A program made the translations under genes and the position numbers. From the UHGV virus genome UHGV-1507039: a stretch of DNA of 33,215 nucleotides. The stretch is one strand, 5' to 3'. Below, in pieces: positions 8,329 through 33,215 of the stretch. This DNA is from a virus. The notes under the pieces were generated by a model. It was given only the letters and a program-made list of their open reading frames with translations, was not told the origin of the DNA and made no database searches. The stretch's first letter is position 1; each line of letters opens with the position of its first letter.

Positions 8329-9354
8329 TTACGCCAGTTGTACAGACACGAACTCATCAGGGTCAGCCAGCAGCATCAGCGGTGCTGACTGAATCATGGT
8401 GAACTCTCGCGCCGGATCGCCGGATGTCTTCCAGTTTTTCGGATAACGGGGAGACGCATTAATACCCTCACTCAATGCATCCGCATCCTGAATACAGCCA
8501 TAGGTGCGCAGACCGCGTGCATGAGTGTTACCCAGCACCATCGTGTTGTCCGGCAGGAAGTTCTTTTTGACGCCGTTTTCCACGTACTGTCCGGAATACA
8601 CGACGATGGCCACATCGCCATACATCCCCTTATAGGACACCGCTTTACCCAGGTCTTTCACCGCTGTCTCCAGCTCGGAATGAGAGCCACGACGGGTATC
8701 CAGCTTCTCCCTGACGGCTTTGAAGGAACGGAACAGCGCCCAGCCTTTCGGATCGAACACGATGATATTCACCACACCGCTGGCGTTCAGCGCGTAGGCT
8801 TCGATATCGTCGGTCGGGTCATACGTGGACTTGTCACGCTTGCTCCACTCCGTGCCGCCGGACTGCGTGATGTTATTCTCCTCACTGCGGCCCATATCCA
8901 CCTCAACCGGATCGAAGGCTTCACCGGTCATGGTGTATTTGCCCTTAAGCACGGCAGAAACTGCCTGCATCTCTTCGACCTGAGCAATGGCCAGCTCTTC
9001 GTCACGCATGTTCTGCATGATGATGCGACGGCGGCGGTAAGCCGGGTCCGCCAGATTCTGCGGATCTTCATCCGGCAGGCGACGCAGGGTCATCTGCGGA
9101 TTCACTTCATGCTTCGGCTTGACATATCCCGGCGTAAATTCAGAGGTGGAGCCGCCACGGGAACGGATAACCTCACCGGAAACAATCGGCGAAACGTACA
9201 GCGCCATGTTTACCAGTCCCGGAATTTGTGAGAGATAGACTTTCTCCGTGGTGAAGGGATAGCTCTCACGGAAAAAGAGACGCAGAAACAGCGGATCAAA
9301 CTTAAATTTCTGCTCATTTGCCGCCAGCAGCTGGGCGGTTGTGTACATCGACAT
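8329..9354 (-). CDS. E: Major capsid protein E
   Basis: 341 aa from MSMYTTAQLLAANEQKFKFDPLFLRLF, lambda E-like. Confidence 0.93.
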   Translation of the reverse strand: MSMYTTAQLLAANEQKFKFDPLFLRLFFRESYPFTTEKVYLSQIPGLVNMALYVSPIVSGEVIRSRGGSTSEFTPGYVKPKHEVNPQMTLRRLPDEDPQNLADPAYRRRRIIMQNMRDEELAIAQVEEMQAVSAVLKGKYTMTGEAFDPVEVDMGRSEENNITQSGGTEWSKRDKSTYDPTDDIEAYALNASGVVNIIVFDPKGWALFRSFKAVREKLDTRRGSHSELETAVKDLGKAVSYKGMYGDVAIVVYSGQYVENGVKKNFLPDNTMVLGNTHARGLRTYGCIQDADALSEGINASPRYPKNWKTSGDPAREFTMIQSAPLMLLADPDEFVSVQLA

Positions 9355-18644: not shown

Positions 18645-19727
18645 ATGAAAAAATTAACAGTGGCAATTTCTGCTGTAGCTGCATCAGTACTGATGGCGAT
18701 GTCTGCTCAGGCAGCTGAAATTTATAATAAAGACAGTAACAAGCTGGATCTGTACGGGAAAGTTAATGCTAAGCACTACTTCTCCTCTAATGATGCAGAT
18801 GATGGTGATACTACTTATGCCCGTCTTGGCTTCAAAGGTGAAACCCAAATCAACGATCAACTGACTGGTTTCGGTCAGTGGGAATATGAATTCAAAGGCA
18901 ACCGCGCTGAATCTCAAGGTTCCTCCAAAGACAAAACCCGTCTTGCATTTGCAGGCCTGAAATTCGGTGACTACGGCTCAATCGATTACGGCCGTAACTA
19001 CGGTGTAGCATACGACATCGGTGCGTGGACTGACGTTCTGCCAGAATTCGGTGGCGATACCTGGACCCAAACAGATGTGTTCATGACTGGTCGCACCACT
19101 GGTGTTGCAACCTATCGTAACAACGACTTCTTTGGTCTGGTCGATGGCCTGAACTTTGCTGCTCAGTATCAGGGTAAAAATGACCGCACTGACGTAACTG
19201 AAGCCAATGGTGATGGTTTCGGTTTCTCCACTACTTATGAGTATGAAGGATTCGGCGTGGGTGCAACCTATGCTAAATCAGATCGCACTGACGGTCAGGT
19301 CGCCTATGGTAAGAGCAAATTCAATGCCTCCGGCAAAAATGCGGAAGTATGGGCTGCAGGCCTGAAATATGATGCGAACAATATCTATCTGGCTACCACA
19401 TATTCTGAAACTCAGAATATGACCGTTTTTGGTAATAACCATATTGCAAACAAAGCACAAAACTTTGAAGCAGTAGCACAATATCAGTTTGACTTCGGTC
19501 TGCGACCATCTGTTGCTTACCTTCAGTCAAAAGGTAAAGACCTTGGTGTTCATGGTGACCGAGACTTAGTCAAGTATGTCGATGTCGGTGCTACTTACTA
19601 CTTTAATAAAAACATGTCCACTTTTGTTGATTACAAAATCAACTTAATTGACGATAGTAAGTTTACCAAAACAGCTGGTATTGATACCGACGACATCGTC
19701 GCTGTAGGTCTGGTGTATCAGTTCTAA
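18645..19727 (+). CDS. nmpC: OmpC/OmpF-family general porin, NmpC/Lc-like lysogenic-conversion moron, intact
   Basis: 360 aa; signal peptide ending AQA|AEIYNK; porin hallmarks including C-terminal VYQF; AT-rich; opposite strand to flanking Q and lysis genes as in DLP12. Confidence 0.9.
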
Positions 19728-19916: not shown

Positions 19917-20300
19917 TTAATTAGAGTTATTAACAACGATATCCATCTCTAACCGGATATCTAATGCCATTAACATCCCTTCAATTATACCCTCAGCCTT
20001 CTGTAACCTTTTCCCGATATAACCATCAGAGCAGCAATGCTTACCTGCCAGTGACATGAATGTCATACCGACTACATAATAATCTACTAATAAATCGTGC
20101 AAATCGCTGTTGTTCTTTTTCAGACGGGCCATGCACCCGCAAATGATCATCGCGTCATCGTCACAACATTGTGGGCGAGATTTTACTTTTGAAGGAATTA
20201 ATCCCTTAAAACCGGCGGCAATGGACGACCAGGTCACATCTTCATGATTATTAGCCGCCCACGCTCCCCAACGCTCAAGAACCATCTGAATATCACGCAT
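19917..20300 (-). CDS. Q: Late-gene antiterminator Q, phage 21 / DLP12 QuuD type
   Basis: 127 aa from [26 protein letters not shown] with Cys-rich zinc-binding region; position between rusA/ylcG and the lysis genes. Confidence 0.9.
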
Positions 20301-20385
20301 CAACTTACTCCACAAAACTCAGACCAGAACGCCAATTACAAGCAAAAATCAATAAAACAGTATTAGTTGATTGTTATCTCTGACT

Positions 20386-20526
20386 TCATACTCCTGCTCC
20401 TGTCAGGGTTTTGGCGTAATTCCTCAGTATTCGGTAATCGGTCAAAACAGAACTGGGGAAACGATATAAGCGCAGGCGCATCCAGCGGTGGCGAAGAAGT
20501 TCTACCATATAAAACTCAAACATCAT
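20386..20526 (-). CDS. ylcG: Small protein YlcG-like (46 aa)
   Basis: [46 protein letters not shown]; ATG overlaps rusA stop (ATGA); not in the ORF track because under 60 aa. Confidence 0.7.
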
Positions 20527-20885
20527 TCATCTCCCTGTTCAGTGATGGTCAGTTCCAGCTTTCCACCTTTGACAACCGGCATCTTCACAACGCGGTAATC
20601 AACGACCTGAGCATCATCCAACCAGAAACCTGCTTTGGTGAGTGCGTCAAAAGCGGCCTTTTGTAGATTATCCAGGTCACGGCGACGGCGATCCGGCATG
20701 TGACACTCAATGCGGATTTTCACAGGCATAGCCAGGCCGATATCCAGCATTGCGTTTTTAATGATTCGGGCGACGTTTTCGCGGTATGCCTGCCCCTCTG
20801 CGCTGATGTGCGTGCGCCCGCGATTATGGCGGTAATAGCGATTATTGCTCGGCGGCCAGGGTAATGTGATATTGTAGGTATTCAC
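20523..20885 (-). CDS. rusA: Holliday junction resolvase RusA; GTG start
   Basis: 120 aa ([26 protein letters not shown]...), RusA-like; first codon is GTG overlapping the upstream remnant stop (GTGA). Confidence 0.9.
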
Positions 20886-21010
20886 GCCTTAATAACCCCC
20901 TCTTTCAGCCAGATAACCTGTGTTCTCGCCATACCTTCCAGCGCGCATTCTTTTGCATATGCAGCATCGACTTGCTTGGCATGCCCTTTACCGGCAATCT
21001 TCTGTATGCG
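20882..21010 (-). pseudogene. ybcO: ybcO-like (DUF1364) C-terminal remnant, 42 codons, preceded by in-frame stops; an overlapping 64-aa ORF (20905..21099) in another frame
   Basis: Frame ending ...[25 protein letters not shown] coupled to rusA as in DLP12, but only about 200 bp available where an intact gene needs about 290 bp. Confidence 0.35.
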
Positions 21011-21091
21011 CTAAACCTAGATAGAATCCACTCTGTGCACATTGAAGCCCGCTCTATGCTTCCTTTCAGGTATTGAAGGGATTGAGATGGG

Positions 21092-21439
21092 CTAAGCATT
21101 ATTGGCCTCCTGCATCAGGAGAAAGACAATCATGGCGGCGCGGAGAGGTCTGGTATCAAATATTGGGCTTACGCCTTTTGCATCCACACACCATTCAGTT
21201 AACTGGTCTAAGATAGAAATCCTGTATTTCTCAATAATCGGCCATGAAGCGCTCGGATCATTGCAGTAGTCAGGCAAATGATTTAATGGCTCAAAAGTTG
21301 TATCAGCATTTCCGTAATACCATTTGTTGGTGTTATTCCCTGATGTTTCCGGTTTACTTGCCCAAAGGCCTTTAAAAATTATGTCTCCTACCATTCTGTT
21401 AATTTCAAAATCACTTAACTGTGAATAATCCATTGTCAT
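21092..21439 (-). CDS. nin-region hypothetical protein, possibly NinX/DUF2591-like
   Basis: 115 aa from [21 protein letters not shown]; ATGA-coupled to ninE stop; family name is a low-confidence recollection. Confidence 0.6.
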
Positions 21440-21612
21440 TTCCTCGCACGATATCTTAGCCACCGGATATCCCACAGGTGAGCTGTGTAATTGAAGGTTT
21501 TTACGTCAGATTCTTTTGGGATTGGCTTGCGTTTATTTCTGGAGCGTTTCGTTGGAAGGTATTTGCAGTTTTCGCAGATGATGTCGGTGAAACTTCGTCG
21601 CTGTCGCCTCAT
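21436..21612 (-). CDS. ninE: NinE
   Basis: [52 protein letters not shown], lambda NinE-like; ATGA-coupled to the upstream methyltransferase. Confidence 0.85.
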
Positions 21613-22136
21613 GCCGCCCTCCTGACGCCCTGCCCGATCGCCATCAATGCCGCTTTGGATACGGTAGTAAACATCCGTCGAGGACTGATGAACGGTCGCC
21701 AAATCAGCAGCATGGAGCCTTTGCTGTTTCCCTTCTTCTCCAGCCCTGTCGATGGTTCGATAAAATTAATCCGTCCATCAGTGATAATGCGAACTTCGTC
21801 GACACTCTCCAGAGCCTTGCTGAACCATCCGACTGACATATCCTCTGGCACAAGCATAACTACCGTCTGTCGCTGTTGTATGCACTGCTCAGCGGCTTTT
21901 TCCACCCACGGCCTGATATTGCTGTACGGTGGGTTATTCCAGATTGCACCGTGGCTTACCCACTCAGAATTGAGCGCGTCGTCGGCCTCAGTTAGCCAGT
22001 GAGCACACAGAGCATTTTTGTCGCTCGCTGCCGAATCCAGCCAGAATCCAAACTCAATATCCAGTGCATCAAAAAGCCAAAGCGGCGTTTGCCAGCAGTC
22101 CTTGTCGTGTGCTGGCGTATTTGATTTGATAGTCAT
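21609..22136 (-). CDS. Phage Dam-type DNA N6-adenine methyltransferase (nin region, in the position of lambda ninC)
   Basis: 175 aa from [29 protein letters not shown]; catalytic NPPYS (DPPY-type motif IV); ATGA-coupled to ninB. Confidence 0.8.
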
Positions 22137-22573
22137 GCAGCCCGATCTCCCCATCTCGCTTTCCACTCCAGAGCCAGTCTCGCTTCGTCTGACCACTTAA
22201 CGCCACGCTCTGTACCGAATGCCTGTATAAGCTCTAATAGCTCCGCAAATTCGCCTACACGCATCCTGCTGGTTGACTGGCCTATTACCACAAAGCCATT
22301 CCCGGCAAGGTTAGGAACAACATCCTGCTGCTTTAATGCTGCGGTAAACACACACTTCCAGCTTTCTGCATCCAGCCAGCGACCATGCCATTCAACCTGA
22401 CGAGAGACGTCACCTAAGCAGGCCCATAGCTTCCTGTTTTGGTCTAAGCTGCGGTTGCGTTCCTGAATGGTTACTACGATTGGTTTGGTTGGGTCTGGAA
22501 GGATTTGCTGTACTGCGTGAATAGCGTTTTGCTGATGTGCTGGAGATCGAATTTCAAAGGTTAGTTTTTTCAT
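22133..22573 (-). CDS. ninB: NinB (Orf-family recombination mediator)
   Basis: 146 aa from MKKLTFEIRSPAHQQNAIHAVQQILPDPTKPIVVTIQERNRSLDQNRKLWA, lambda NinB-like. Confidence 0.9.
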   Translation of the reverse strand: MKKLTFEIRSPAHQQNAIHAVQQILPDPTKPIVVTIQERNRSLDQNRKLWACLGDVSRQVEWHGRWLDAESWKCVFTAALKQQDVVPNLAGNGFVVIGQSTSRMRVGEFAELLELIQAFGTERGVKWSDEARLALEWKARWGDRAA

Positions 22574-22585
22574 GACTTCCCTCTC

Positions 22586-22621
22586 CCCCAAATAAAAAGG
22601 CCTGCGATTACCAGCAGGCCT
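22586..22621 (-). terminator. tR2-like intrinsic terminator between ren and ninB
   Basis: Minus-strand hairpin AGGCCTGC-tggtaatc-GCAGGCCT followed by TTTTTATTT. Confidence 0.65.
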
Positions 22622-22646
22622 GTTATTAGCTCAGTAATGTAGATGG

Positions 22647-22937
22647 TCATCTTTTAACTCCATATACCGCCAATACCCGTTTCATCGCGGCACTCTGGCG
22701 ACACTCCTTAAAAATCAGGTTCGTGCTCATCTTTCCTTCCCGTTCTTCCCTGGTAGCAAACCGGTAATACACCGTTCGCCAGACCTTACCTTCGATAACC
22801 AGAAGACCTGCCCGTGCCATTTTAGCCGCGGCCTGATTTATGCTGGTTACTGTTGCGCCTGTTAGCGCGGCAACGTCCGGCGCACAGAAGCTATTATGCG
22901 TCCCCAGGTAATGAATAATTGCCTCTTTGCCCGTCAT
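22647..22937 (-). CDS. ren: Ren
   Basis: 96 aa, lambda Ren-like (MTGKEAIIHYLGTHNSFCAPDVAALTGATVTSINQAAAKMARAGLLVIEGKVW). Confidence 0.92.
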   Translation of the reverse strand: MTGKEAIIHYLGTHNSFCAPDVAALTGATVTSINQAAAKMARAGLLVIEGKVWRTVYYRFATREEREGKMSTNLIFKECRQSAAMKRVLAVYGVKR

Positions 22938-23635
22938 ACACTTGCTCCTTTCAGTCCGAACTTAGCTTTAATTTCTGCGATCTTCGCCAGAGCCTGTGCA
23001 CGATTTAGAGGTCTACCGCCCATAACAGGAAGTTGTTTTACTGGTTCAGGTATCGTCTCACCACGGTTAATTCGCGCTGTCATACAGGTCAGTTCATCGG
23101 CAGCCTTGCGCCGTAATTCCGCATCAGTAAGCGCATTGGCCCGCATGTTCTGATACAGGTTGGTAACCAGCCAGTAGTGCGCGTTTGATTTCCACGGATA
23201 AGACTCCGCATCCGGATACAGGCCTCGCTTCCGGCAATACTCGTAAACCATATCAACCAGCTCGCTGACGTTTGGCAGTCCGGCGATAACGGATGCTTCT
23301 TCCCGGCACCATGCAACAAACTGCCCGGGTGATGGCAGAAATGGTCGATTCTGCCGACGGGCTACGCGCATTCCTGCGTTAACCTGTTCCATTGTGGTGA
23401 TCCCGTTTTCCCGGAAAGCCAGAACCCACTGGCGGCGGATTTCGTTCAGTTCGTTCTGGTCACGGTTAGCCAGACTCGCCGGGAAAGTTGCCAGTAACTG
23501 GCTGAACACACCGTTGATGATCTGCGCTACCTGCTGTACCTGTGGCTTTTCGTCGTACTGTTCCGGCATGTTGTTGGCGATCCGACGCATCTGCTCACGG
23601 TCAAAGTTAACCATCTGTGCGGCGATGTTTTTCAT
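22934..23635 (-). CDS. P: Replication protein P (DnaB helicase loader)
   Basis: 233 aa, lambda P-like (MKNIAAQMVNFDREQMRRIANNMPEQYDEKPQVQQ). Confidence 0.95.
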   Translation of the reverse strand: MKNIAAQMVNFDREQMRRIANNMPEQYDEKPQVQQVAQIINGVFSQLLATFPASLANRDQNELNEIRRQWVLAFRENGITTMEQVNAGMRVARRQNRPFLPSPGQFVAWCREEASVIAGLPNVSELVDMVYEYCRKRGLYPDAESYPWKSNAHYWLVTNLYQNMRANALTDAELRRKAADELTCMTARINRGETIPEPVKQLPVMGGRPLNRAQALAKIAEIKAKFGLKGASV

Positions 23636-24531
23636 AGATCCACCCCGTAAATCCAGTCAGTGTTTGTCAGGTCGAGTTTTGGTTTTCCGGCTGTCACGCC
23701 AGCCTGTTGCTTGTTACGGTTGATTTCGAGCTGGGTCCACTTGTCGCGGAGTTTGGCCGGACTCAGCACGTTACCGGACCAGAAGTTGTCCTGGCAGGCC
23801 CAGCGGAAAAGCACACACATATCGCGGTGGTTACGTCCGTCACGTTCACGCATCAGGCGGATATCGTTAGCCCACCCAGCAAAATTCGGTTTTCTGGCTG
23901 ATGGCGCGATGGTCTTCACCATGTCAAACATCCACTCTGCGGCGGTCAGGTCTTCTGCTGTTCCCCACTTACTGCCGCTCTGAATTGCAGCATCCGGTTT
24001 AACCACAGAAAGATCGTTTTCTGGCTGGTCAGAGGATTCGCCAGAATTCTCGGACGAATAATCTTTTCTTTTTTCTTTTGTAATAGTGTCTTTTGTGTCC
24101 CCCTGTTTTGAGGGATAGCAATCCCCCAATTTGAGGGATGTTTTATCCCTCGTTTTAGGGGATTTTCCCTCGTTTTGAGGGATACACCATTCTGAGATGT
24201 TTTTATTTGGTCCAAACATGCCGCCTTGCTGCTTGATAATATTCATTCTGACGAGTTCTAACTTGGCTTCATTGCACCGTTTGACAGGTAACTTTGTAAT
24301 CTCGCTAAGTTGAGAATCGGTGATTCTGTCCATTGGTTTATTCCACCCATAGGTTTTACGCAGAATGGCAAGCAGCACTTTAAACTGTCGCTTGGTCAGA
24401 TCTGCGCCTGAATAAGCCTCAAGCAGCATATTTGATAGTCTGGCGTAACCATCATCGAGATCTGCCACATTACGCTCCTGTCCGGTAAAGTTACCTCTGC
24501 CGAAGTTGAGTATTTTTGCTGTATTTGTCAT
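23632..24531 (-). CDS. O: Replication initiator O
   Basis: 299 aa from MTNTAKILNFGRGNF, lambda O-like; ori iterons inside the gene; longer ORF extends to 24576. Confidence 0.95.
   Translation of the reverse strand: MTNTAKILNFGRGNFTGQERNVADLDDGYARLSNMLLEAYSGADLTKRQFKVLLAILRKTYGWNKPMDRITDSQLSEITKLPVKRCNEAKLELVRMNIIKQQGGMFGPNKNISEWCIPQNEGKSPKTRDKTSLKLGDCYPSKQGDTKDTITKEKRKDYSSENSGESSDQPENDLSVVKPDAAIQSGSKWGTAEDLTAAEWMFDMVKTIAPSARKPNFAGWANDIRLMRERDGRNHRDMCVLFRWACQDNFWSGNVLSPAKLRDKWTQLEINRNKQQAGVTAGKPKLDLTNTDWIYGVDL
24040..24183 (-). repeat. ori: ori-lambda: four ~19-bp iterons (24098..24183) followed in the O reading direction by an AT-rich region (24040..24097)
   Basis: Plus strand shows four repeats of the form tccc(c/t)..ttt(t)gaggga; adjacent tcttttcttttttcttttgtaat stretch. 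Confidence 0.9.
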
Positions 24532-24540
24532 AATGACTCC

Positions 24541-24608
24541 TGTGGATTGATCCAGTCTTTCTACATCAGGCCTCAAAACTGTTGCAGCAGTCTTGAGGCT
24601 TTTCTTTT
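24541..24608 (+). ncRNA. oop: OOP-like antisense RNA with promoter pO (-35 TTGAGT 24506..24511, -10 CATAAT 24529..24534) and intrinsic terminator (24570..24608), antisense to the 3' end of cII
   Basis: Near-consensus sigma70 promoter with 17-bp spacer; hairpin GCCTCAA..TTGAGGC then TTTTCTTTT; same layout as lambda OOP. Confidence 0.6.
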
Positions 24609-24844
24609 GTCAGCACCATGGCTACTTTCTTTGCTAGCTTTGCTAATTCCTCGTCTTCAACACCCCACTCCAGCACAGCCAGAAGCATGGCCATCTTTGG
24701 GATAAAGCTGTCTTTCCATCGCGAAATTTGCGATTCATTAATCCCTAATGCATCAGCAACCTTTCGCTGACCACGTACAGCAATTCGATTCAGGATGTTG
24801 CTTGTGATTGCATTCGCTTTCTTGCGAGTACTTGTAAGTTGCAT
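24566..24844 (-). CDS. cII: Transcriptional activator CII (non-lambda allele)
   Basis: 92 aa from MQLTSTRKK; conserved SQISRWK and MLLAVLEWGV motifs; about half identical to lambda CII by eye. Confidence 0.8.
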   Translation of the reverse strand: MQLTSTRKKANAITSNILNRIAVRGQRKVADALGINESQISRWKDSFIPKMAMLLAVLEWGVEDEELAKLAKKVAMVLTKEKPQDCCNSFEA

Positions 24845-24901
24845 ATGTAAGTATTTCCTTAACAAATAAGAAGTTATACGCACCAACTGATGCGCGTTGT
24901 A

Positions 24902-24945
24902 TTCCCGCATTTCGGCGGGAATAAGGACCATGACTGTTAAAGAGC
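24902..24945 (-). promoter_or_regulatory. nutR: nutR: boxA (GCTCTTTAA, 24937..24945) and boxB hairpin (TTCCCGC-cgaaat-GCGGGAA, 24902..24921) between cro and cII
   Basis: BoxA consensus match and stem-loop on the minus strand just downstream of cro; same boxB sequence recurs upstream of N. Confidence 0.7.
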
Positions 24946-24952
24946 AATTTGC

Positions 24953-25138
24953 TTATGCCGCTTTGCGATAAGCACTTTCTTGATACTTCAGGGCGCCAGC
25001 TGTAACGACTTCCAGTCGATAGGCGTCTTTCTCTGGGATGACTTCCTTCCACTGAGAGACTGCTGCATCGCTAATGCCTAACGCTTTAGCTACCGCACGC
25101 TGGGTTCCGAAGTGGTCGATAACATCTTTCTTGTACAT
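24953..25138 (-). CDS. cro: Cro-like repressor
   Basis: 61 aa (MYKKDVIDHFGTQRAVAKALGISDAAVSQWK...), HTH; divergent from cI across an 80-bp operator region. Confidence 0.85.
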   Translation of the reverse strand: MYKKDVIDHFGTQRAVAKALGISDAAVSQWKEVIPEKDAYRLEVVTAGALKYQESAYRKAA

Positions 25139-25218
25139 AGACTCGCTCCGAAATTAAAGAACACTTAAATTATCTATCAAAGGAATCTTAAGTCAAGTTT
25201 ATTTAAGATGTCTTAACT
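25139..25218. promoter_or_regulatory. OR: Right operator/promoter region: candidate pR (minus strand -35 TTGACT 25191..25196, -10 ATAATT 25168..25173), pRM and operators built on CTTAA(A)/TTAAG palindromes
   Basis: 80-bp cI-cro intergenic region; palindrome TTAAGATGTCTTAA at 25203..25216; CTTAAG at 25187..25192; CTTAAATTATC over the pR -10. Confidence 0.6.
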
Positions 25219-25869
25219 ATGAATACACAACTGATGGGTGAGCGTATTCGCGCTCGCAGAAAAGAACTTAAGATTAGGCAGGCTGCCCTTGGCAAGATGG
25301 TTGGCGTGTCTAATGTTGCTATTTCCCAATGGGAGCGTTCTGAAACTGAGCCCAATGGCGAAAACCTATTGGCTTTAGCCAAGGCTTTACAGTGCTCCCC
25401 TGATTACTTGTTGAAAGGAGAAGATAGTCTTTCAAACATTGCCTATCACAGCAGGCATGATCCAAGAGGTTCGTATCCTCTAATTAGTTGGGTAAGCGCA
25501 GGATGTTGGATGGAAGCTGTAGAGCCATATCATAAGCGTGCAATAGATAACTGGTACGATACAACCGTAGATTGTTCAGAAGATTCGTTTTGGCTGGACG
25601 TAAAGGGTGATTCGATGACGGCTCCAGCCGGTCTTAGCATCCCGGAAGGGATGATAATACTAGTCGATCCTGAAGTAGAACCTCGTAATGGGAAGCTGGT
25701 AGTGGCAAAGCTCGAAGGAGAAAACGAGGCAACTTTCAAGAAGTTAGTTATTGATGCTGGCAGAAGGTTTCTAAAACCACTTAACCCACAATATCCGATG
25801 ATTGAGATCAACGGGAACTGCAAAATCATCGGTGTAGTTGTCGATGCAAAAATAGCAAACCTTCCATAA
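25219..25869 (+). CDS. cI: CI-type prophage repressor (N-terminal HTH, C-terminal LexA/S24 autopeptidase domain)
   Basis: 216 aa; HTH near VGVSNVAISQWERSE; Ala-Gly cleavage site (VSAGCW), GDSM serine and downstream Lys; C-terminus like 434-family repressors; no SD before the ATG. Confidence 0.9.
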   Translation: MNTQLMGERIRARRKELKIRQAALGKMVGVSNVAISQWERSETEPNGENLLALAKALQCSPDYLLKGEDSLSNIAYHSRHDPRGSYPLISWVSAGCWMEAVEPYHKRAIDNWYDTTVDCSEDSFWLDVKGDSMTAPAGLSIPEGMIILVDPEVEPRNGKLVVAKLEGENEATFKKLVIDAGRRFLKPLNPQYPMIEINGNCKIIGVVVDAKIANLP

Positions 25870-25890
25870 GGGGCATTCGCCCCTTTTTTT
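25870..25890 (+). terminator. Intrinsic terminator immediately after cI
   Basis: GGGGC-attc-GCCCC followed by TTTTTTT. Confidence 0.75.
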
Positions 25891-25914
25891 CTTTCCTTTA
25901 AAAATCAAAGCAAA

Positions 25915-25995
25915 ACTTAAGCTTCGCAACAAAATTTAAGTTTTCTTCAAAAACACTCTTGACCAATAGTTAAAGAAATCTTAAATTTAAGTCAT
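25915..25995 (+). promoter_or_regulatory. OL: Left operator/promoter region: candidate pL (-35 TTGACC 25959..25964, -10 TTAAAT 25981..25986) overlapped by palindrome CTTAAATTTAAG (25980..25991); further CTTAAG and TTTAAG motifs upstream
   Basis: Promoter-like hexamers with 16-bp spacing upstream of nutL and N; operator-like palindromes share the motif seen in OR. Confidence 0.55.
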
Positions 25996-26033
25996 CGGCA
26001 GGACGCTGGTAGCCAAACGGAACAGATTGGCAG

Positions 26034-26076
26034 GCTCTTTAACATTGATGGGATTGTCCCGCCGAAATGCGGGAAC
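26034..26076 (+). promoter_or_regulatory. nutL: nutL: boxA (GCTCTTTAA, 26034..26042) and boxB hairpin (TCCCGC-cgaaat-GCGGGA, 26057..26074)
   Basis: Same boxA and boxB sequences as the nutR site; about 110 bp upstream of N. Confidence 0.7.
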
Positions 26077-26181
26077 CAAAGAGTAGTTGGCTTTGGGGTG
26101 ACGTGAAGTGCAGCTGCACGACGGCAACCGGAAGATAAGCACCCGGCGCGTCACCGCCAAAGTCAATCATCGGAGGTCAAC

Positions 26182-26454
26182 ATGGCAGTAGTCATTACAT
26201 ATCTGGCTGACGATAACGCCAGAAATCGCCGCAGAGCACGCAGACAGGCTCAACGTGAGCAGGCAATGCAAGAACAGCGACTGGCGCGAAAAATTGCGCT
26301 AAAGCTCTCTGGTTGCGTCAGAGCAGACAAAGCAGCATCACTCGGAAGCCTTCGCTGCAAGAAGGCAGATGAATGCAGTGGAAGTATTTGCCTGCCAAAC
26401 GTAGCCATTTACGCGGCAGGCTACCGGAAATCAAAACAACTGACGGCGAGATGA
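26182..26454 (+). CDS. N: N-type transcription antiterminator (non-lambda allele, P22/21-like)
   Basis: 90 aa; N-terminal arginine-rich motif NARNRRRARRQAQREQ; C-terminus AIYAAGYRKSKQLTAR resembles P22 gene 24 product as recalled; preceded by SD GGAGG. Confidence 0.8.
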   Translation: MAVVITYLADDNARNRRRARRQAQREQAMQEQRLARKIALKLSGCVRADKAASLGSLRCKKADECSGSICLPNVAIYAAGYRKSKQLTAR

Positions 26455-26470
26455 TAAATTAATTTGCTAA

Positions 26471-27052
26471 TTACTTGTTTTTGCCATGCTTATCCTGAGC
26501 GATAAGTTCATCCATAAGACTGTCTTTCTTCCCAGCAAACCTAATGTAGCACTCATTTCTATAGCGTTCCGGGATAACAAAACGGTCGATTTCAGGATAT
26601 CCAGTAGCAGAAGGTACCCGAATAAGAAGCCCTTTTTCGAGCAATGAGATTGCTTCAGGGCTTCCCTTTTCTGTCTTTAGCTGGTTATTAGCGGCTACAG
26701 CGAATGCCAAATACGCTCTTTCTCCAAGAGTTAACGAATCAAACAAATCTTGCACGTATTTCTCTTCTTTAGATTTGCGCTTCTGAGCAGCGAATATCTC
26801 AATTCTTTCAGTCACAGCGTGATAAGCGGAATTAACAACGCCGTTAAGCACATAGCTAACGCAAAACAACAGGATGTAATACATCCAGTAATGAGGAAGG
26901 ATTTCTGGATTATGCAGGTTTATCCATTCTTTTACGCTTACAGGCATAACAATAATCAATATGATCAGGATGATTAGCATATGAATCAACTGTTTAAGTG
27001 TCATTCCTTGCAGGAAAAAATGCATTAGTTCCTGCCACCATGAGTTGTTCAT
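26471..27052 (-). CDS. sieB: Superinfection exclusion protein SieB
   Basis: 193 aa, lambda SieB-like; N-terminal hydrophobic segments; antisense to the pL operon just downstream of N. Confidence 0.85.
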   Translation of the reverse strand: MNNSWWQELMHFFLQGMTLKQLIHMLIILIILIIVMPVSVKEWINLHNPEILPHYWMYYILLFCVSYVLNGVVNSAYHAVTERIEIFAAQKRKSKEEKYVQDLFDSLTLGERAYLAFAVAANNQLKTEKGSPEAISLLEKGLLIRVPSATGYPEIDRFVIPERYRNECYIRFAGKKDSLMDELIAQDKHGKNK

Positions 27053-27266
27053 CGGCGTTTCTCTTTTGCTCTCTGTAGGGGTGAATAGAGTTTATCCGAT
27101 TTCTCGCTGTAGGGGTACACGAGAACCACCGAGCCTGATGTGGTTAAAAGACAGGCATACTAATAAACACTGCACTGTGTATTCATTCCAACGAGTGAAT
27201 ACACTGAGCAATGTCGCTCGTAACTAAACAGGAGCCGACTTGTTCTGATTATTGGAAATCTTCTTT

Positions 27267-27292
27267 GCCCTCCAATGTGAGGGCGATTTTTT
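27267..27292 (+). terminator. Intrinsic terminator upstream of ea10 within the pL operon (tL-type)
   Basis: GCCCTC-caatgt-GAGGGC followed by GATTTTTT. Confidence 0.7.
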
Positions 27293-27312
27293 ATCTGTGA
27301 GGATATGAATAG

Positions 27313-27681
27313 ATGTCAAACATCAAAAAATACATCATTGATTACGACTGGAAAGCATCAATAGAAATTGAAATCGACCATGACGTAATGACAGAGGAAA
27401 AACTTCACCAGATTAATAATTTCTGGTCAGACTCTGAATACCGACTCAATAAACACGGCTCTGTATTAAATGCTGTATTAATCATGCTGGCGCAACATGC
27501 TCTGCTTATAGCAATTTCAAGCGACTTAAATGCATATGGTGTTGTGTGTGAGTTCGACTGGAATGATGGAAATGGTCAGGAAGGATGGCCTCCAATGGAT
27601 GGTAGCGAAGGAATAAGAATTACCGATATCGATACATCAGGAATATTTGATTCAGATGATATGACTATCAAAGCCGCCTGA
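27313..27681 (+). CDS. ea10: Ea10 early protein
   Basis: 122 aa, lambda Ea10-like (MSNIKKYIIDYDWKASIEIEIDHDVMTEEKLHQINNFWSDSEYRL). Confidence 0.85.
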   Translation: MSNIKKYIIDYDWKASIEIEIDHDVMTEEKLHQINNFWSDSEYRLNKHGSVLNAVLIMLAQHALLIAISSDLNAYGVVCEFDWNDGNGQEGWPPMDGSEGIRITDIDTSGIFDSDDMTIKAA

Positions 27682-27753
27682 GCGCGGCGTTACCGCATAC
27701 CAATAACGCTTCACTCGAGGCGTTTTTCGTTATGTATAAATAAGGAGCACACC

Positions 27754-27918
27754 ATGCAATATGCCATTGCAGGGTGGCCTGTTGCTGGCTGCCCTTCCGA
27801 ATCTTTACTTGAACGAATCACCCGTAAATTACGTGACGGATGGAAACGCCTTATCGACATACTTAATCAGCCAGGAGTCCCAAAAAATGGATCAAACACT
27901 TATGGCTATCCAGACTAA
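27754..27918 (+). CDS. cIII: CIII (FtsH inhibitor, 54 aa)
   Basis: [54 protein letters not shown], lambda CIII-like; below the 60-aa ORF-track cutoff. Confidence 0.85.
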   Translation: MQYAIAGWPVAGCPSESLLERITRKLRDGWKRLIDILNQPGVPKNGSNTYGYPD

Positions 27919-28030
27919 ATTCACTATCGCCACTTTTATTGGCGATGAAAAGATGTTTCGTGAGGCCGTCGACGCTTATAAAAAATGGATATTAATACTG
28001 AAACTGAGATCAAGCAAAAGCATTCACTAA
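27887..28030 (+). CDS. kil: Kil (host killing / FtsZ inhibitor, 47 aa)
   Basis: [47 protein letters not shown]; overlaps cIII and gam as in lambda. Confidence 0.85.
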
Positions 28031-28401
28031 CCCCCTTTCCTGTTTTCCTAATCAGCCCGGCATTTCGCGGGCGATATTTTCACAGCTATTTCAGGAGTTC
28101 AGCCATGAACGCTTATTACATTCAGGATCGTCTTGAGGCTCAGAGCTGGACGCGTCACTACCAGCAGATCGCCCGTGAAGAGAAAGAGGCAGAACTGGCA
28201 GACGACATGGAAAAAGGCCTGCCCCAGCACCTGTTTGAATCACTCTGCATCGATCATTTACAACGCCACGGGGCCAGCAAAAAAGCCATTACCCGTGCGT
28301 TTGATGACGATGTTGAGTTTCAGGAGCGCATGGCAGAACACATCCGGTACATGGTTGAAACCATTGCTCACCACCAGGTTGATATTGATTCAGAGGTATA
28401 A
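27985..28401 (+). CDS. gam: Gam (RecBCD inhibitor); long form 138 aa, short GamS from internal Met at 28105
   Basis: Lambda Gam-like ([55 protein letters not shown]). Confidence 0.95.
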
Positions 28402-28406
28402 AACGG

Positions 28407-29192
28407 ATGAGTACAGCACTCGCAACGCTGGCTGGGAAGCTGGCTGAACGCGTCGGCATGGATTCTGTCGACCCACAGGAACTGATCACCACTCTTCGCC
28501 AGACGGCATTTAAAGGTGATGCCAGCGATGCGCAGTTCATCGCATTGCTGATCGTCGCCAACCAGTACGGCCTTAATCCGTGGACGAAAGAAATTTACGC
28601 CTTCCCTGACAAGCAGAACGGCATCGTTCCGGTGGTGGGCGTTGATGGCTGGTCCCGTATCATCAATGAAAACCAGCAGTTTGATGGCATGGACTTTGAG
28701 CAGGACAATGAATCCTGCACATGCCGGATTTACCGCAAGGACCGCAATCATCCGATCTGCGTTACCGAGTGGATGGATGAATGCCGCCGCGAACCATTCA
28801 AAACCCGCGAAGGCAGAGAAATCACGGGGCCGTGGCAGTCGCATCCCAAACGGATGTTACGGCATAAAGCCATGATTCAGTGTGCCCGTCTCGCCTTCGG
28901 ATTTGCTGGTATCTATGACAAGGATGAAGCCGAGCGCATTGTCGAAAATACCGCATACACTGCAGAACGTCAGCCGGAACGCGACATCACTCCGGTTAAC
29001 GATGAAACCATGCAGGAGATTAACACTCTGCTGATTGCCCTGGATAAAACATGGGATGACGACTTATTGCCGCTCTGTTCCCAGATATTTCGCCGCGACA
29101 TTCGCGCATCGTCAGAACTGACACAGGCCGAAGCAGTGAAAGCTCTTGGATTCCTGAAACAGAAAGCCACTGAGCAGAAGGTGGCAGCATGA
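28407..29192 (+). CDS. bet: Bet (Red-beta single-strand annealing protein)
   Basis: 261 aa, lambda Bet-like ([72 protein letters not shown]). Confidence 0.95.
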
Positions 29193-29869
29193 CACCGGAC
29201 ATTATCCTGCAGCGTACCGGGATCGACGTGAGAGCTGTCGAACAGGGGGATAATGCATGGCACAAATTACGGCTCGGCGTCATCACCGCTTCAGAAGTTC
29301 ACAACGTGATAGCAAAGCCCCGATCAGGAAAGAAGTGGCCTGACATGAAAATGTCCTACTTCCACACCCTGCTGGCTGAGGTTTGCACCGGTGTGGCTCC
29401 GGAAGTTAACGCTAAAGCGCTGGCCTGGGGAAAACAGTACGAGAACGACGCCAGAACCCTGTTTGAGTTCACTTCCGGCGTAAATGTTATTGAATCCCCG
29501 ATCATCTATCGCGACGAAAGTATGCGCACCGCCTGCTCTCCCGATGGTTTATGCAGTGACGGCAATGGCCTTGAGCTGAAATGCCCGTTTACCTCCCGGG
29601 ATTTCATGAAATTCCGGCTCGGTGGTTTCGAGGCCATAAAGTCGGCTTACATGGCCCAGGTGCAGTACAGCATGTGGGTGACGCGAAAAGATGCCTGGTA
29701 CTTTGCCAACTATGACCCGCGTATGAAGCGTGAAGGCCTGCATTATGTCGTGATTGAGCGGAATGAAAAGTATATAGCGAGTTTTGACGAGATGGTGCCG
29801 GAGTTCATCGAAAAAATGGACGAGGCACTGGCTGAAATTGGTTTTGTATTTGGGGAGCAATGGCGATGA
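29189..29869 (+). CDS. exo: Exo (lambda 5'-3' exonuclease, Red-alpha)
   Basis: 226 aa, lambda Exo-like ([93 protein letters not shown]). Confidence 0.95.
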
Positions 29870-30024
29870 AACATCCTCACGATAATATCCGCGTAGGCAC
29901 GATCACTTTCGTCTACTCCGTTACGAAGCGAGGCTGGGTATTTCCCGGCCTTTCTGTTATCCGAAATCCCCTGAAAGCACAGCGGCTGGCTGAGGAGATA
30001 AATAATAAACGGGGAGCTGTATGA
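29866..30024 (+). CDS. Small early protein, lambda orf60a-like (52 aa)
   Basis: [52 protein letters not shown]; ATGA-coupled to exo stop and to the next gene start. Confidence 0.6.
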
Positions 30025-30578
30025 CTGATTTCACCGGAAGCAATACTCCTGCCGAACATCGCGACAGCTGGCGCACACCACCAGAGATTTTTGCTGCGCT
30101 TAATGCAGAGTTCGTTTTTCAACTTGATGCTGCCGCCAGCGAAAAAAACCGACTATGTCGGCTTTTTATCTCACAGGAGCAGAACACATTAACCACTTCA
30201 TGGCCTGAAGCAATGGGATATGCCTCTGGTTATGTCTGGTTGAATCCACCATACAGCAATATTTCCCCTTTTGTGAAAAAGGCAGCCACTGAAAACAAAT
30301 TCAGCAGTGTGGGATGTGTAATGTTATTACCTGCTGACACATCTGTCGGATGGTTTCATGAAGCGATACAAACCGCCAGTGAGGTCAGATTCATCACGGC
30401 AGGACGACTGGCATTTATTAACCCACTCACCGGGAAACACGTCAGTGGAAATAATAAAGGCTCGATGCTCATTATCTGGCACCCATACCCCCGTACACAC
30501 TGCCACTTTACGACCGTTGATCGTGGAGAGTTGATGGCGTTCGGCTCAAGGATTCTTGCCCGTCGGGAGGCTGCATGA
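30021..30578 (+). CDS. Second phage Dam-type DNA N6-adenine methyltransferase (early-left operon)
   Basis: 185 aa; NPPYSNI motif, W.TP and VGWF motifs shared with the nin-region methyltransferase; clearly homologous but divergent. Confidence 0.8.
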   Translation: MTDFTGSNTPAEHRDSWRTPPEIFAALNAEFVFQLDAAASEKNRLCRLFISQEQNTLTTSWPEAMGYASGYVWLNPPYSNISPFVKKAATENKFSSVGCVMLLPADTSVGWFHEAIQTASEVRFITAGRLAFINPLTGKHVSGNNKGSMLIIWHPYPRTHCHFTTVDRGELMAFGSRILARREAA

Positions 30579-30658
30579 CAACCACGGAATGCATTTTTCT
30601 GGCAGCGGGCTTCATATTCTGTGTGCTTATGCTTGCCGACATGGGACTTGTTCAATGA
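30575..30658 (+). CDS. Micro-ORF encoding a 27-aa hydrophobic peptide (MTTTECIFLAAGFIFCVLMLADMGLVQ)
   Basis: ATGA-coupled on both sides; single predicted TM helix; no homology assessed. Confidence 0.4.
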   Translation: MTTTECIFLAAGFIFCVLMLADMGLVQ

Positions 30659-30870
30659 CACCTCAGCAGGAAAACGCCCTTCGCAGCATAGCCCGTCAGG
30701 CTAATTCTGAAATCAAAAAAGCCAGACAGCAGTTTCCGGATAAAAACGTCGATGACATTTGCCGTAGCGTACTGAAGAAGCACCGCGAAACGGTAACGCT
30801 GATGGGATTCACACCGACTCATTTAAGCCTGGCGATCGGCATGTTAAACGGCGTCTTTAAGGAGCGATGA
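30655..30870 (+). CDS. Hypothetical early protein (71 aa)
   Basis: MTPQQENALRSIARQANSEIKKARQQF...; coupled within the operon; ORF track shows a longer 104-aa frame from 30556. Confidence 0.55.
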   Translation: MTPQQENALRSIARQANSEIKKARQQFPDKNVDDICRSVLKKHRETVTLMGFTPTHLSLAIGMLNGVFKER

Positions 30871-30962
30871 ACATGAAAAGCAAAATCATCAGGGAGCTAC
30901 AGGCTCCTTTTTTATTATTCGCATTCACCCTCAAGCGTATTAACCAACAATTCAGGGATTAA
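30867..30962 (+). CDS. Micro-ORF (31 aa, MNMKSKIIRELQAPFLLFAFTLKRINQQFRD)
   Basis: ATGA-coupled to the preceding ORF; speculative. Confidence 0.3.
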   Translation: MNMKSKIIRELQAPFLLFAFTLKRINQQFRD

Positions 30963-30968
30963 TGGAAG

Positions 30969-31187
30969 ATGGCAGACATCATTGATTCAGCATCAGAAAT
31001 CGAAGAATTACAGCGCAATACAGCAATAAAAATGCGTCGTCTGAACCACCAGGTTATATCTGCCACTCATTGTTGTGAGTGTGGCGATCCCATAGATGAA
31101 CGAAGACGCCTGGCCGTTCAGGGTTGTCGGACTTGTGCAAGCTGCCAGGAGGAGATCGAACTTAAGAACAAACAATGGGGATTGTGA
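30969..31187 (+). CDS. TraR/DksA-family C4 zinc-finger protein
   Basis: 72 aa with CxxC(17)CxxC (CCECGDPIDERRRLAVQGCRTCASC) preceded by a helical segment. Confidence 0.7.
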   Translation: MADIIDSASEIEELQRNTAIKMRRLNHQVISATHCCECGDPIDERRRLAVQGCRTCASCQEEIELKNKQWGL

Positions 31188-31234
31188 TGGCCTCAAAGCA
31201 GCAAATTTCAACATCGTCCAACTGAGGTGTAAAA

Positions 31235-31513
31235 ATGTTCAGAATCATTTTGCCTAACACCTGGTACGTCGACCACCACGGCACTCCCTGCAAAATCCTG
31301 CGTTCTACCCACAACAAAGTTCACTACATCCGAAAAGGCAGAACATGTATCGCCAGCATGTTCCGCTTTAATCATGACTTTGAACCTGTGAATAAAGCTG
31401 ATGCAGATCGGATAGCAGAAGAGATCGAAACGGCAGAACACATTAAGAAGTTACGTGACATGCGTTCAAAAAGCAGAGGTAACCATGGAATCATACAGCC
31501 TCACACTCGATGA
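31235..31513 (+). CDS. Hypothetical protein (92 aa)
   Basis: Open frame between the zinc-finger gene and xis; overlaps the proposed xis start by about 28 bp; no recognised motif. Confidence 0.45.
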   Translation: MFRIILPNTWYVDHHGTPCKILRSTHNKVHYIRKGRTCIASMFRFNHDFEPVNKADADRIAEEIETAEHIKKLRDMRSKSRGNHGIIQPHTR

Positions 31514-31856
31514 GGCCTGTCAGTTTCTTAAGATATCCAGACCAACCGCCACCAACTGGATACGAACAGGCCGCCTACAGGCAACACGTAAAGATCCAAC
31601 CAAGCCAAAATCTCCTTACCTCACAACACGGCAAGCCTGCATTGCGGCGCTTCAGTCTCCGCTGCATACTGTCCAGGTGAGCGCGGGTGATGGCATAACA
31701 GAGGAAAGAAAATGTCACTCTTCCGCAGAAATGAAATATGGTATGCCTCGTATTCGCTCCCGGGCGGGAAACGAATTAAGGAATCTCTTGGCACAAAGGA
31801 CAAGCGGCAAGCTCAGGAGTTGCACGACAAGCGAAAAGCAGAACTCTGGCGAGTAG
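31485..31856 (+). CDS. xis: Excisionase, AlpA/MerR-like HTH; 3' end uncertain because the frame overlaps int by about 145 bp
   Basis: From [36 protein letters not shown] (excisionase-type winged HTH); position immediately upstream of int. Confidence 0.55.
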
Positions 31857-32875
31857 AAAAGCTAGGGGATTTACCTGATGTCACTTTTGAAGAGGCCTGC
31901 CTAAGATGGCTTGAGGAAAAAGCTGATAAAAAATCTCTCGATTCAGATAAAAGCCGGATTGAGTTCTGGCTTGAACATTTTGAGGGTATAAGGCTTAAAG
32001 ATATCTCGGAGGCAAAGATTTACTCTGCTGTAAGCAGAATGCATAACAGAAAGACGAAAGAAATATGGAAACAGAAAGTTCAGGCCGCCATCAGGAAAGG
32101 TAAAGAACCGCCTGTTTATGAACCAAAGCCAGTATCAACTCAGACAAAGGCAAAGCATCTTGCCATGATAAAGGCCATTCTCCGTGCTGCAGAACGCGAC
32201 TGGAAGTGGCTGGAAAAAGCGCCTGTCATCAAGATACCAGCGGTCAGAAACAAGCGAGTCAGATGGCTGGAAAAGGAGGAAGCAAAACGCCTTATTGATG
32301 AGTGCCCCGAACCACTGAAATCTGTCGTCAAGTTTGCGCTGGCAACTGGTCTGAGAAAGTCGAACATCATAAATCTGGAATGGCAACAAATCGACATGCA
32401 GCGACGAGTTGCCTGGGTGAATCCAGAAGAGAGCAAATCAAACCGCGCCATTGGTGTGGCGCTGAACGATACCGCCTGTAAAGTGTTGCGTGATCAAATA
32501 GGCAAGCATCACAAATGGGTGTTTGTACATACCAAGGCGGCTAAGCGAGCAGATGGAACATCAACGCCTGCGGTCAGGAAGATGCGCATCGACAGCAAGA
32601 CATCATGGCTATCAGCTTGTCGTCGTGCAGGAATTGAAGATTTCCGTTTCCATGACCTCAGACACACCTGGGCAAGCTGGCTGATTCAGTCAGGCGTCCC
32701 ATTATCAGTGCTTCAGGAAATGGGCGGATGGGAGTCCATAGAAATGGTTCGTAGGTATGCTCACCTTGCGCCTAATCATTTGACAGAGCATGCGAGGAAA
32801 ATAGACGACATTTTTGGTGATAATGTCCCAAATATGTCCCACTCTGGAATTATGGAGGATATAAAGAAGGCGTAA
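31712..32875 (+). CDS. intD: Tyrosine integrase, DLP12 IntD-type
   Basis: 387 aa; C-terminal catalytic region with HDLRHT and RRYAHL(a)P motifs; adjacent to tRNA-Arg. Confidence 0.93.
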
Positions 32876-32890
32876 CTGATTGAATTGTAA

Positions 32891-32967
32891 TGGCGCGCCC
32901 TGCAGGATTCGAACCTGCGGCCCACGACTTAGAAGGTCGTTGCTCTATCCAACTGAGCTAAGGGCGC
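32891..32967 (-). tRNA. argU: tRNA-Arg (anticodon UCU), argU-type; likely carries the prophage att core at its 3' end
   Basis: 77-nt minus-strand sequence GCGCCCTTAGCTCAGTTGGATAGAGCAACGACCTTCTAAGTCGTGGGCCGCAGGTTCGAATCCTGCAGGGCGCGCCA with cloverleaf features, anticodon loop CTTCTAA and encoded CCA. Confidence 0.9.
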
Positions 32968-33215
32968 GTTGATACCGCAATGCGGTGTAATCGCGTGAAT
33001 TATACGGTCAACCCTTGCTGAGTCAATGGCTTTTGATCTGGTTGCTGAACAAGTGAACGACCGCGTCTGATTTTCTGATTTATTTCGCTATAGTGGCAAA
33101 CAAACGCACACCGCTGCGCGTCTGAATCAAGAAAACCCGTATTTTCATGTATCAAAGTACAGGTGATGCTGCCAACTTACTGATTTAGTGTATGATGGTG
33201 TTTTTGAGGTGCTCC

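Follow-up and report, generated by a model that had tools for sequence, protein, structure and literature searches.

We found that the window, the whole 33,215-nucleotide stretch of the virus genome UHGV-1507039 that was analysed, carries two members of the phage N-6-adenine-methyltransferase family, both of the HP1-T1-VT2 Dam type, in an E. coli prophage of the lambda type that occupies the tRNA-Arg (argU, DLP12) site. The first, MT1, lies in the nin region and matches a known enzyme, while the second, MT2, is a new, uncharacterised member of the known family from a separate, widespread enterobacterial subclade. Judged by sequence comparison, the pair is a mosaic, in which a common nin module with MT1 has been joined to a left arm whose variable slot holds MT2. 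As a whole explanation, we lean moderately towards two functional phage Dam methyltransferases of mosaic origin, MT2 having GATC as its target, that are expressed as delayed-early genes and protect the progeny. The two genes are as follows.

21609..22136, minus strand: MT1, phage Dam-family N6-adenine DNA methyltransferase, 175 aa (PF05869, TIGR01712; 175/175 identity with the dam product of phage VT2-Sakai)
30021..30578, plus strand: MT2, phage Dam-family N6-adenine DNA methyltransferase, 185 aa, uncharacterised enterobacterial subclade (PF05869, TIGR01712)

Both open reading frames, which a first-pass annotation had called as Dam-type methyltransferases, are intact. MT1 is 175 aa long from its ATG, and a GTG located 60 nt upstream would give a 195-aa protein. 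The Pfam profile PF05869, ‘DNA N-6-adenine-methyltransferase (Dam)’ with a cut-off of 28.1 bits, spans the whole of MT1 (E 6.4e-65, 218 bits) and the whole of MT2 (E 1.7e-56, 191 bits) and is the sole Pfam match of each. The NCBIfam model TIGR01712, ‘phage N-6-adenine-methyltransferase’, scores 266 bits for MT1 and 169 bits for MT2 against a cut-off of 97 bits, and both proteins match PHROG 111; the HMM searches thus bear out the proposed placement in the phage Dam family. NPPYS is present in both proteins as the catalytic (D/N)PPY motif IV, and upstream of it both have an LD(S/A)AAS segment, whose conserved LD.AA is probably the AdoMet-binding motif I. The alignment of MT1 and MT2 with T1 Dam and HP1 Dam shows no variation at D34 or N68-P-P-Y-S72, and D36 and N75-P-P-Y-S79 of MT2 are likewise kept in all of 20 MT2-clade homologues. 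Of the remaining motifs that had been described as shared, W.TP and VGWF are found in both proteins, while NKGSML is exact only in MT2 and reads SKGSML in MT1. MT2 also has a 5-residue insertion just ahead of the NPPY strand.

MT1 and MT2 have the small single-domain Rossmann-type amino-methyltransferase fold of the family, which lacks a separate target-recognition domain. The AF2 model of MT2 (pLDDT 87) has structural matches with the N6-adenine methyltransferase fold; a sequence search found no PDB chain related to MT2. Neither protein is of the MT-A70 type, which has a DPPW motif and an MT-A70 domain, as both window proteins contain NPPY and match PF05869 only. Both appear to be minimal AdoMet-dependent amino-methyltransferases with an NPPY catalytic loop. 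We also noticed that residues 12-91 of MT2 weakly match positions 302-382 of the 495-position profile phrog_33262 (phosphoadenosine phosphosulfate reductase), which suggests a fused Dam-family N-terminal segment in some phrog_33262 proteins.

Among the closest known systems, M.EcoT1Dam of phage T1 and HP1 Dam (orf13 of the Haemophilus phage HP1) belong to PF05869 and have the same conserved core motifs, although T1 Dam differs by a ~45-aa N-terminal extension and a 14-aa insertion, and the C-terminal FTTV...LMA.G helix common to MT1 and MT2 is absent from both T1 and HP1 Dam. The genome contexts are also different, T1 being virulent and HP1 P2-like. Host E. coli Dam, which is larger and has a separate DNA-binding domain, belongs to a different Pfam family (PF02086, alpha class). 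Phage and host Dam enzymes of different classes have been seen as convergent in specificity, in a statement that concerned an MT-A70 phage enzyme (PMC7556043). Two further candidate relatives, M.EcoGIX, which is plasmid-borne, and M.EcoGII, which is described as beta-class, were set apart by description, as neither is of the HP1/T1/VT2 Dam type.

MT1 is already a named enzyme, which the first-pass annotation had not recognised. In addition to the complete identity of the proteins, the gene order ninB-dam-ninE is common to the window and VT2-Sakai, and we assign MT1 by sequence to the cloned enzyme M.EcoVT2Dam (VT2-Sakai / 933W L0094), from which it differs neither in protein nor in its ninB and ninE neighbours. 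The two neighbouring genes are listed here.

22133..22573, minus strand: ninB, Orf-family recombination mediator (PF05772, E 2e-54); its stop overlaps the MT1 start (ATGA), junction GCATGACT
21436..21612, minus strand: ninE (weak NCBIfam NinE match); its start overlaps the MT1 stop (ATGA), junction GGCATGAGG; same order in VT2-Sakai

We take this position between ninB and ninE to be the ninC/ninD slot of lambda. The target of M.EcoVT2Dam is GATC according to PMC6602927, which cites Radlinska & Bujnicki 2001, and at 100% identity the same specificity is the reported one for MT1. The MT1 gene is present at at least 95% identity in 244 phage records and in 1566 of 5426 complete E. coli genomes (29%), with up to 5 copies per genome. 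MT1, named already and so common in E. coli, therefore adds nothing new.

MT2 is clearly a different protein. Its identity to MT1 is 47% (84/178, E 6e-57, BLASTP), in agreement with the 40-50% estimated earlier by eye; relative to M.EcoVT2Dam it is 47-49% identical and lies in the other early operon. A rough, midpoint-rooted NJ tree of 115 sequences, built without bootstrap support, does not place MT1 and MT2 as sisters, and the smallest clade to include them comprises 28 tips, each representing one 50%-identity cluster. A local duplication is therefore not the source of the pair. Neither near-identity nor loss of a catalytic motif in one copy was seen, and the first-pass view of the two genes as divergent paralogues and not a recent duplication agrees with both the alignment and the tree. 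The whole family comprises 8463 clusters at 50% identity (E <= 1e-3).

Only one phage record, PhiR30_1, contains a near-identical MT2, and the gene is present in 312 of 5426 complete E. coli genomes (5.7%), where the protein is identical across many independent genomes. Its usual setting is in DLP12-like prophages beside an IntD-type integrase; these occupy either tRNA-Arg or a second site close to proA. Relatives at 66-84% identity are abundant, the named ones being in Klebsiella, Enterobacter, Citrobacter and other Enterobacteriaceae. A target motif for MT2, once defined, would improve methylome annotation for E. coli, Klebsiella, Enterobacter and Citrobacter. A frameshifted or truncated copy of MT2 exists elsewhere (L079), and partial matches are also found among the E. 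coli genome results. Several MT2-clade homologues are longer, at 253-663 aa (P0050, P0060, P0067, P0068, P0071, P0088 and P0121-P0125), and the first six of these (253-284 aa) also match the C5-cytosine methyltransferase profile PF00145; the long homologues could be fusion methyltransferases of dual specificity, or their gene starts may have been called wrongly.

The literature searched (PF05869, HP1 Dam, exo-xis region) yielded no experiment on MT2 or on its subclade and close relatives, and we infer its specificity from three reference enzymes with a reported or name-implied GATC target, VT2, T1 and HP1 Dam, all of which are more than 50% diverged from MT2. M.EcoT1Dam is described as modifying G(m6)ATC (PMC4996451), and PMC7556043 lists Dam-like genes for VT-2 and HP1, the HP1 Dam gene having been cloned. 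The pairwise identities of the references are 31% (VT2-T1), 35% (VT2-HP1) and 36% (T1-HP1), while the identity of MT2 is 49% with VT2 Dam, 44% with T1 Dam and 37.5% with HP1 Dam. All three references agree at 37 aligned positions, and MT2 has the same residue at 36 of them, the exception being a change of Q to E, and it lies inside the smallest NJ clade that contains them. By parsimony, these identities, the shared positions and the nesting make GATC the default prediction and the most likely target of MT2, perhaps with some relaxed activity. M.Btr190III, a prophage-encoded enzyme 35% identical to T1 Dam, methylates GATC with marked off-target activity when cloned; specificity in the phage Dam family can therefore be loose.

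The first-pass annotation had suggested instead that the two enzymes could differ in target, for example to evade distinct host restriction systems or to control phage genes epigenetically. On this reading, GATC would be the target of MT1 only, MT2 would recognize another motif or a relaxed one, and the pair would guard the phage DNA against restriction systems of two classes. In its favour, the two proteins are just 47% identical, MT2 has an insertion before the NPPY strand, off-target activity is possible in the family, some prophage methyltransferases of unrelated families are non-specific, and to keep two isospecific enzymes together would seem a waste. However, enzymes of this family that are only 31-36% identical to one another are all reported to be GATC-specific, MT2 keeps nearly all of the positions common to them and nests among them, and the rarity of the pairing, described below, argues against a selected two-enzyme strategy. 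We therefore do not favour different targets for MT1 and MT2 and regard this reading as doubtful, though conceivable.

The window itself contains 86 GATC sites against ~129 expected from base composition, so that the site is under-represented, and GATC-free regions in prophages have been noted in published E. coli methylome papers. This under-representation does not separate the hypotheses.

We then located the junction at which the two genes came together in the left arm of the prophage, which contains the following features.

29860..30024, plus strand: DUF1317 gene, lambda orf60a-like (PF07026, E 1.8e-34); its stop overlaps the MT2 start (ATGA), junction GTATGACT
31712..32875, plus strand: IntD-type integrase (ORF list; same arrangement in DLP12-like prophages)
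32891..32967: tRNA-Arg(tct) attachment site, beside the integrase

Among the best 60 matches, E. coli prophages match the window from position 21609 on, the best at 99.6% identity, and nearly all of these 60 matches end at query positions 8415-8426, which correspond to window positions 30023-30034, exactly where the DUF1317 gene stops and MT2 starts. The LWY6 prophage, one of these matches, shares the tRNA-Arg site and MT1 with the window and differs in the gene that fills the slot after DUF1317, and phage 2G7b has a DUF1382 gene in this slot. Conversely, eleven sampled prophages with MT2 lack MT1, in a sample that covers PhiR30_1, two E. coli chromosomes and 9 of the 10 distinct contexts. The tenth context, L006 (GCA_977066885.1), is the window’s own lineage, being 99.98% identical over window positions 20021..33161. 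The mosaic origin stated above follows from the end of the matches at the MT2 start, the alternative slot genes of LWY6 and 2G7b and the MT2 prophages without MT1.

The slot gene of LWY6 (L098:12413-13165, 250 aa), the equivalent of window positions 30021-30578, matches phrog_887, ‘queuine tRNA-ribosyltransferase’ (E 2e-99), covering only the N-terminal half of the profile, and has no Pfam match. Since the slot holds MT2, a phrog_887-type gene or DUF1382 in sibling prophages, it may be a hotspot for alternative DNA-modification or anti-restriction cassettes in lambdoid phages, and we propose it as a candidate. DUF1317 was considered as a PNB-2-like partner subunit and rejected, as it is also present in the 2G7b and LWY6 prophages without MT2.

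The presence of two adenine methyltransferases on one lambdoid prophage is already known, and it is the two PF05869 paralogues that are unusual. The Stx2 prophage Phi14 of E. coli 95NR1 likewise has two GATC-assigned adenine methyltransferases, M.EcoVT2Dam and an M.EcoGV homologue; in contrast to the present pair, in which both are PF05869, its second enzyme is of the unrelated MT-A70 family (DPPW). We judged co-occurrence from the best 60 E. coli matches, the 10 distinct contexts, the phage records and 56 IMG/VR loci. When 50,697 phage records were searched with MT2 by tblastn, 2044 places in 2043 records matched, leaving a single record with two family members. Of 80 MT2-like loci in IMG/VR, 56 extend at least 8.5 kb upstream, and a second copy within 10 kb is absent from all 56. 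Two PF05869 paralogues in one phage thus look like a rare arrangement that is explained by ordinary lambdoid mosaicism. The single two-copy phage record would be the closest precedent for the arrangement of MT1 and MT2.

The two genes lie in different early operons. The cI gene (25219..25869) is flanked by pR-like and pL-like promoters, and a lambda-type N gene is located after pL. The elements relevant to expression are listed below.

25169..25196, minus strand: pR-like promoter of the cro to nin operon with MT1 (TTGACT-16-GATAAT, 10/12; position relative to cI/cro)
25959..25987, plus strand: pL-like promoter of the N to exo to int operon with MT2 (TTGACC-17-TAAATT, 9/12)
26182..26454: N gene, lambda-type (PF25694)
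22598..22621, minus strand: strong intrinsic-terminator-like hairpin at the tR2 position, between ren and ninB and upstream of MT1 (8-bp stem with 6 GC pairs, then TTTTATTT)
30575..30658, plus strand: 27-aa hydrophobic small ORF, MTTTECIFLAAGFIFCVLMLADMGLVQ, possibly coding, with ATGA overlaps with MT2 and the orf61-like gene
30655..30870, plus strand: orf61-like gene (phrog_303, E 4.7e-36), followed by a terminator-like hairpin at 30891..30909

Reading of the sequence revealed ATGA stop/start overlaps at ninB/MT1, MT1/ninE and DUF1317/MT2, as had been noted earlier for the coupling of each gene into its own operon, and another at the MT2 stop. Tightly packed nin regions show such coupling in general (PMC8022706). 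The placement of MT2 between exo and xis holds in part: MT2 directly follows exo and DUF1317, and between it and int come the orf61-like, DksA-like and DUF4222 genes, none of them identified as xis by name. The 27-aa ORF, which has no match in family profile searches, is present in the E. coli copies as ~80 extra bases and absent at the loci of 72-84% identical MT2 relatives; in six relatives (74-84% identical to MT2), the orf61-like gene directly overlaps the stop of the MT2-like gene. The genes beside MT1 (ninB and ninE) and beside MT2 (exo, DUF1317 and orf61-like) include no annotated restriction endonuclease, and the annotations of the sibling prophages contain no restriction-modification nuclease either, so that both enzymes are orphans, as first described.

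A terminator scan also found several terminator-like sites between N and gam, upstream of MT2. Because both genes are downstream of terminator-like sites in the pR and pL operons and a lambda-type N gene is present, MT1 (from pR) and MT2 (from pL) are predicted, by analogy with lambda, to be N-dependent delayed-early genes that loss of CI would derepress at the same time. This prediction lends no support to the first-pass proposal of different expression timing.

From this arrangement, we infer the biological role of the pair. The lambdoid prophage at tRNA-Arg would possess two functional single-domain N6-adenine methyltransferases with no annotated restriction partner, both genes being silent under CI repression. 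In the lytic cycle, N-antiterminated transcription would reach MT1 from pR and MT2 from pL, and translation would be coupled to recombination genes, with ninB for MT1 and with exo and DUF1317 for MT2. Virion DNA of lambda and P22 is undermethylated by host Dam, possibly because replication outpaces modification (PMC8022706). A phage methylase could complete the methylation of the fast-replicating phage DNA that host Dam leaves undermethylated, and full GATC methylation would shield the progeny in the next host from methylation-sensitive restriction at GATC-containing sites. The chief effect of having two copies would be extra dosage and redundancy, and the double genotype is a natural test of the effect of phage Dam dosage on progeny protection or recombination. 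The role of phage Dam is described as poorly understood (PMC7556043), and as the host already has Dam, even a single phage GATC methylase is of uncertain selective value, and a pair still more so. Nothing that we found points to a new mechanism.

More speculatively, over-methylation might blunt MutH-directed mismatch repair and thereby favour recombination between diverged phages, an idea that comes from the coupling of both genes to recombination genes (ninB and exo/bet). In a stronger form, MT2 and its subclade would have a target or role other than GATC protection, either a relaxed or different DNA motif or a deliberate over-methylation. The latter would blind mismatch repair that depends on MutH, leaving the neighbouring Red (exo/bet) and NinB functions free to recombine diverged DNA. 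We consider this stronger form unlikely; if it were true, the methylase coupled to each recombination module would be there for a reason and not by accident.

Protection of the progeny by two active enzymes also has to be weighed against the possibility that one copy is dead or irrelevant, a passenger of recombination that will be lost and contributes no methylation. The combination is indeed very rare, prophage methyltransferases are often transcriptionally silent in lysogens, and MT2 is frameshifted or truncated elsewhere, as in L079 and the partial matches. Yet neither ORF of the window is broken or lacks a catalytic or cofactor motif, the MT2 protein is unchanged across many independent E. 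coli genomes, and both genes are ATGA-coupled within expressed operons, which makes a dead copy quite improbable. It is scarcely credible that MT2 is not primarily a DNA methyltransferase and instead modifies RNA, perhaps rRNA, with the help of a small coupled partner protein and thereby modulates induction, by comparison with the MT-A70 enzyme M.EcoPA8orf6770P near the int end of Stx2 prophages. M.EcoPA8orf6770P, gp5 of its Stx prophage and a close relative of M.EcoGV, has the DPPW motif of MT-A70 enzymes and was reported to methylate 16S rRNA with a partner subunit (PMC10810198).

In addition to the two methyltransferase genes, the window contains an OmpC/NmpC-type porin gene (18645-19727, plus strand; PF00267, E 2e-151) that, as in DLP12, separates the Q-like antiterminator gene from the lysis genes and is lysogenic-conversion cargo.
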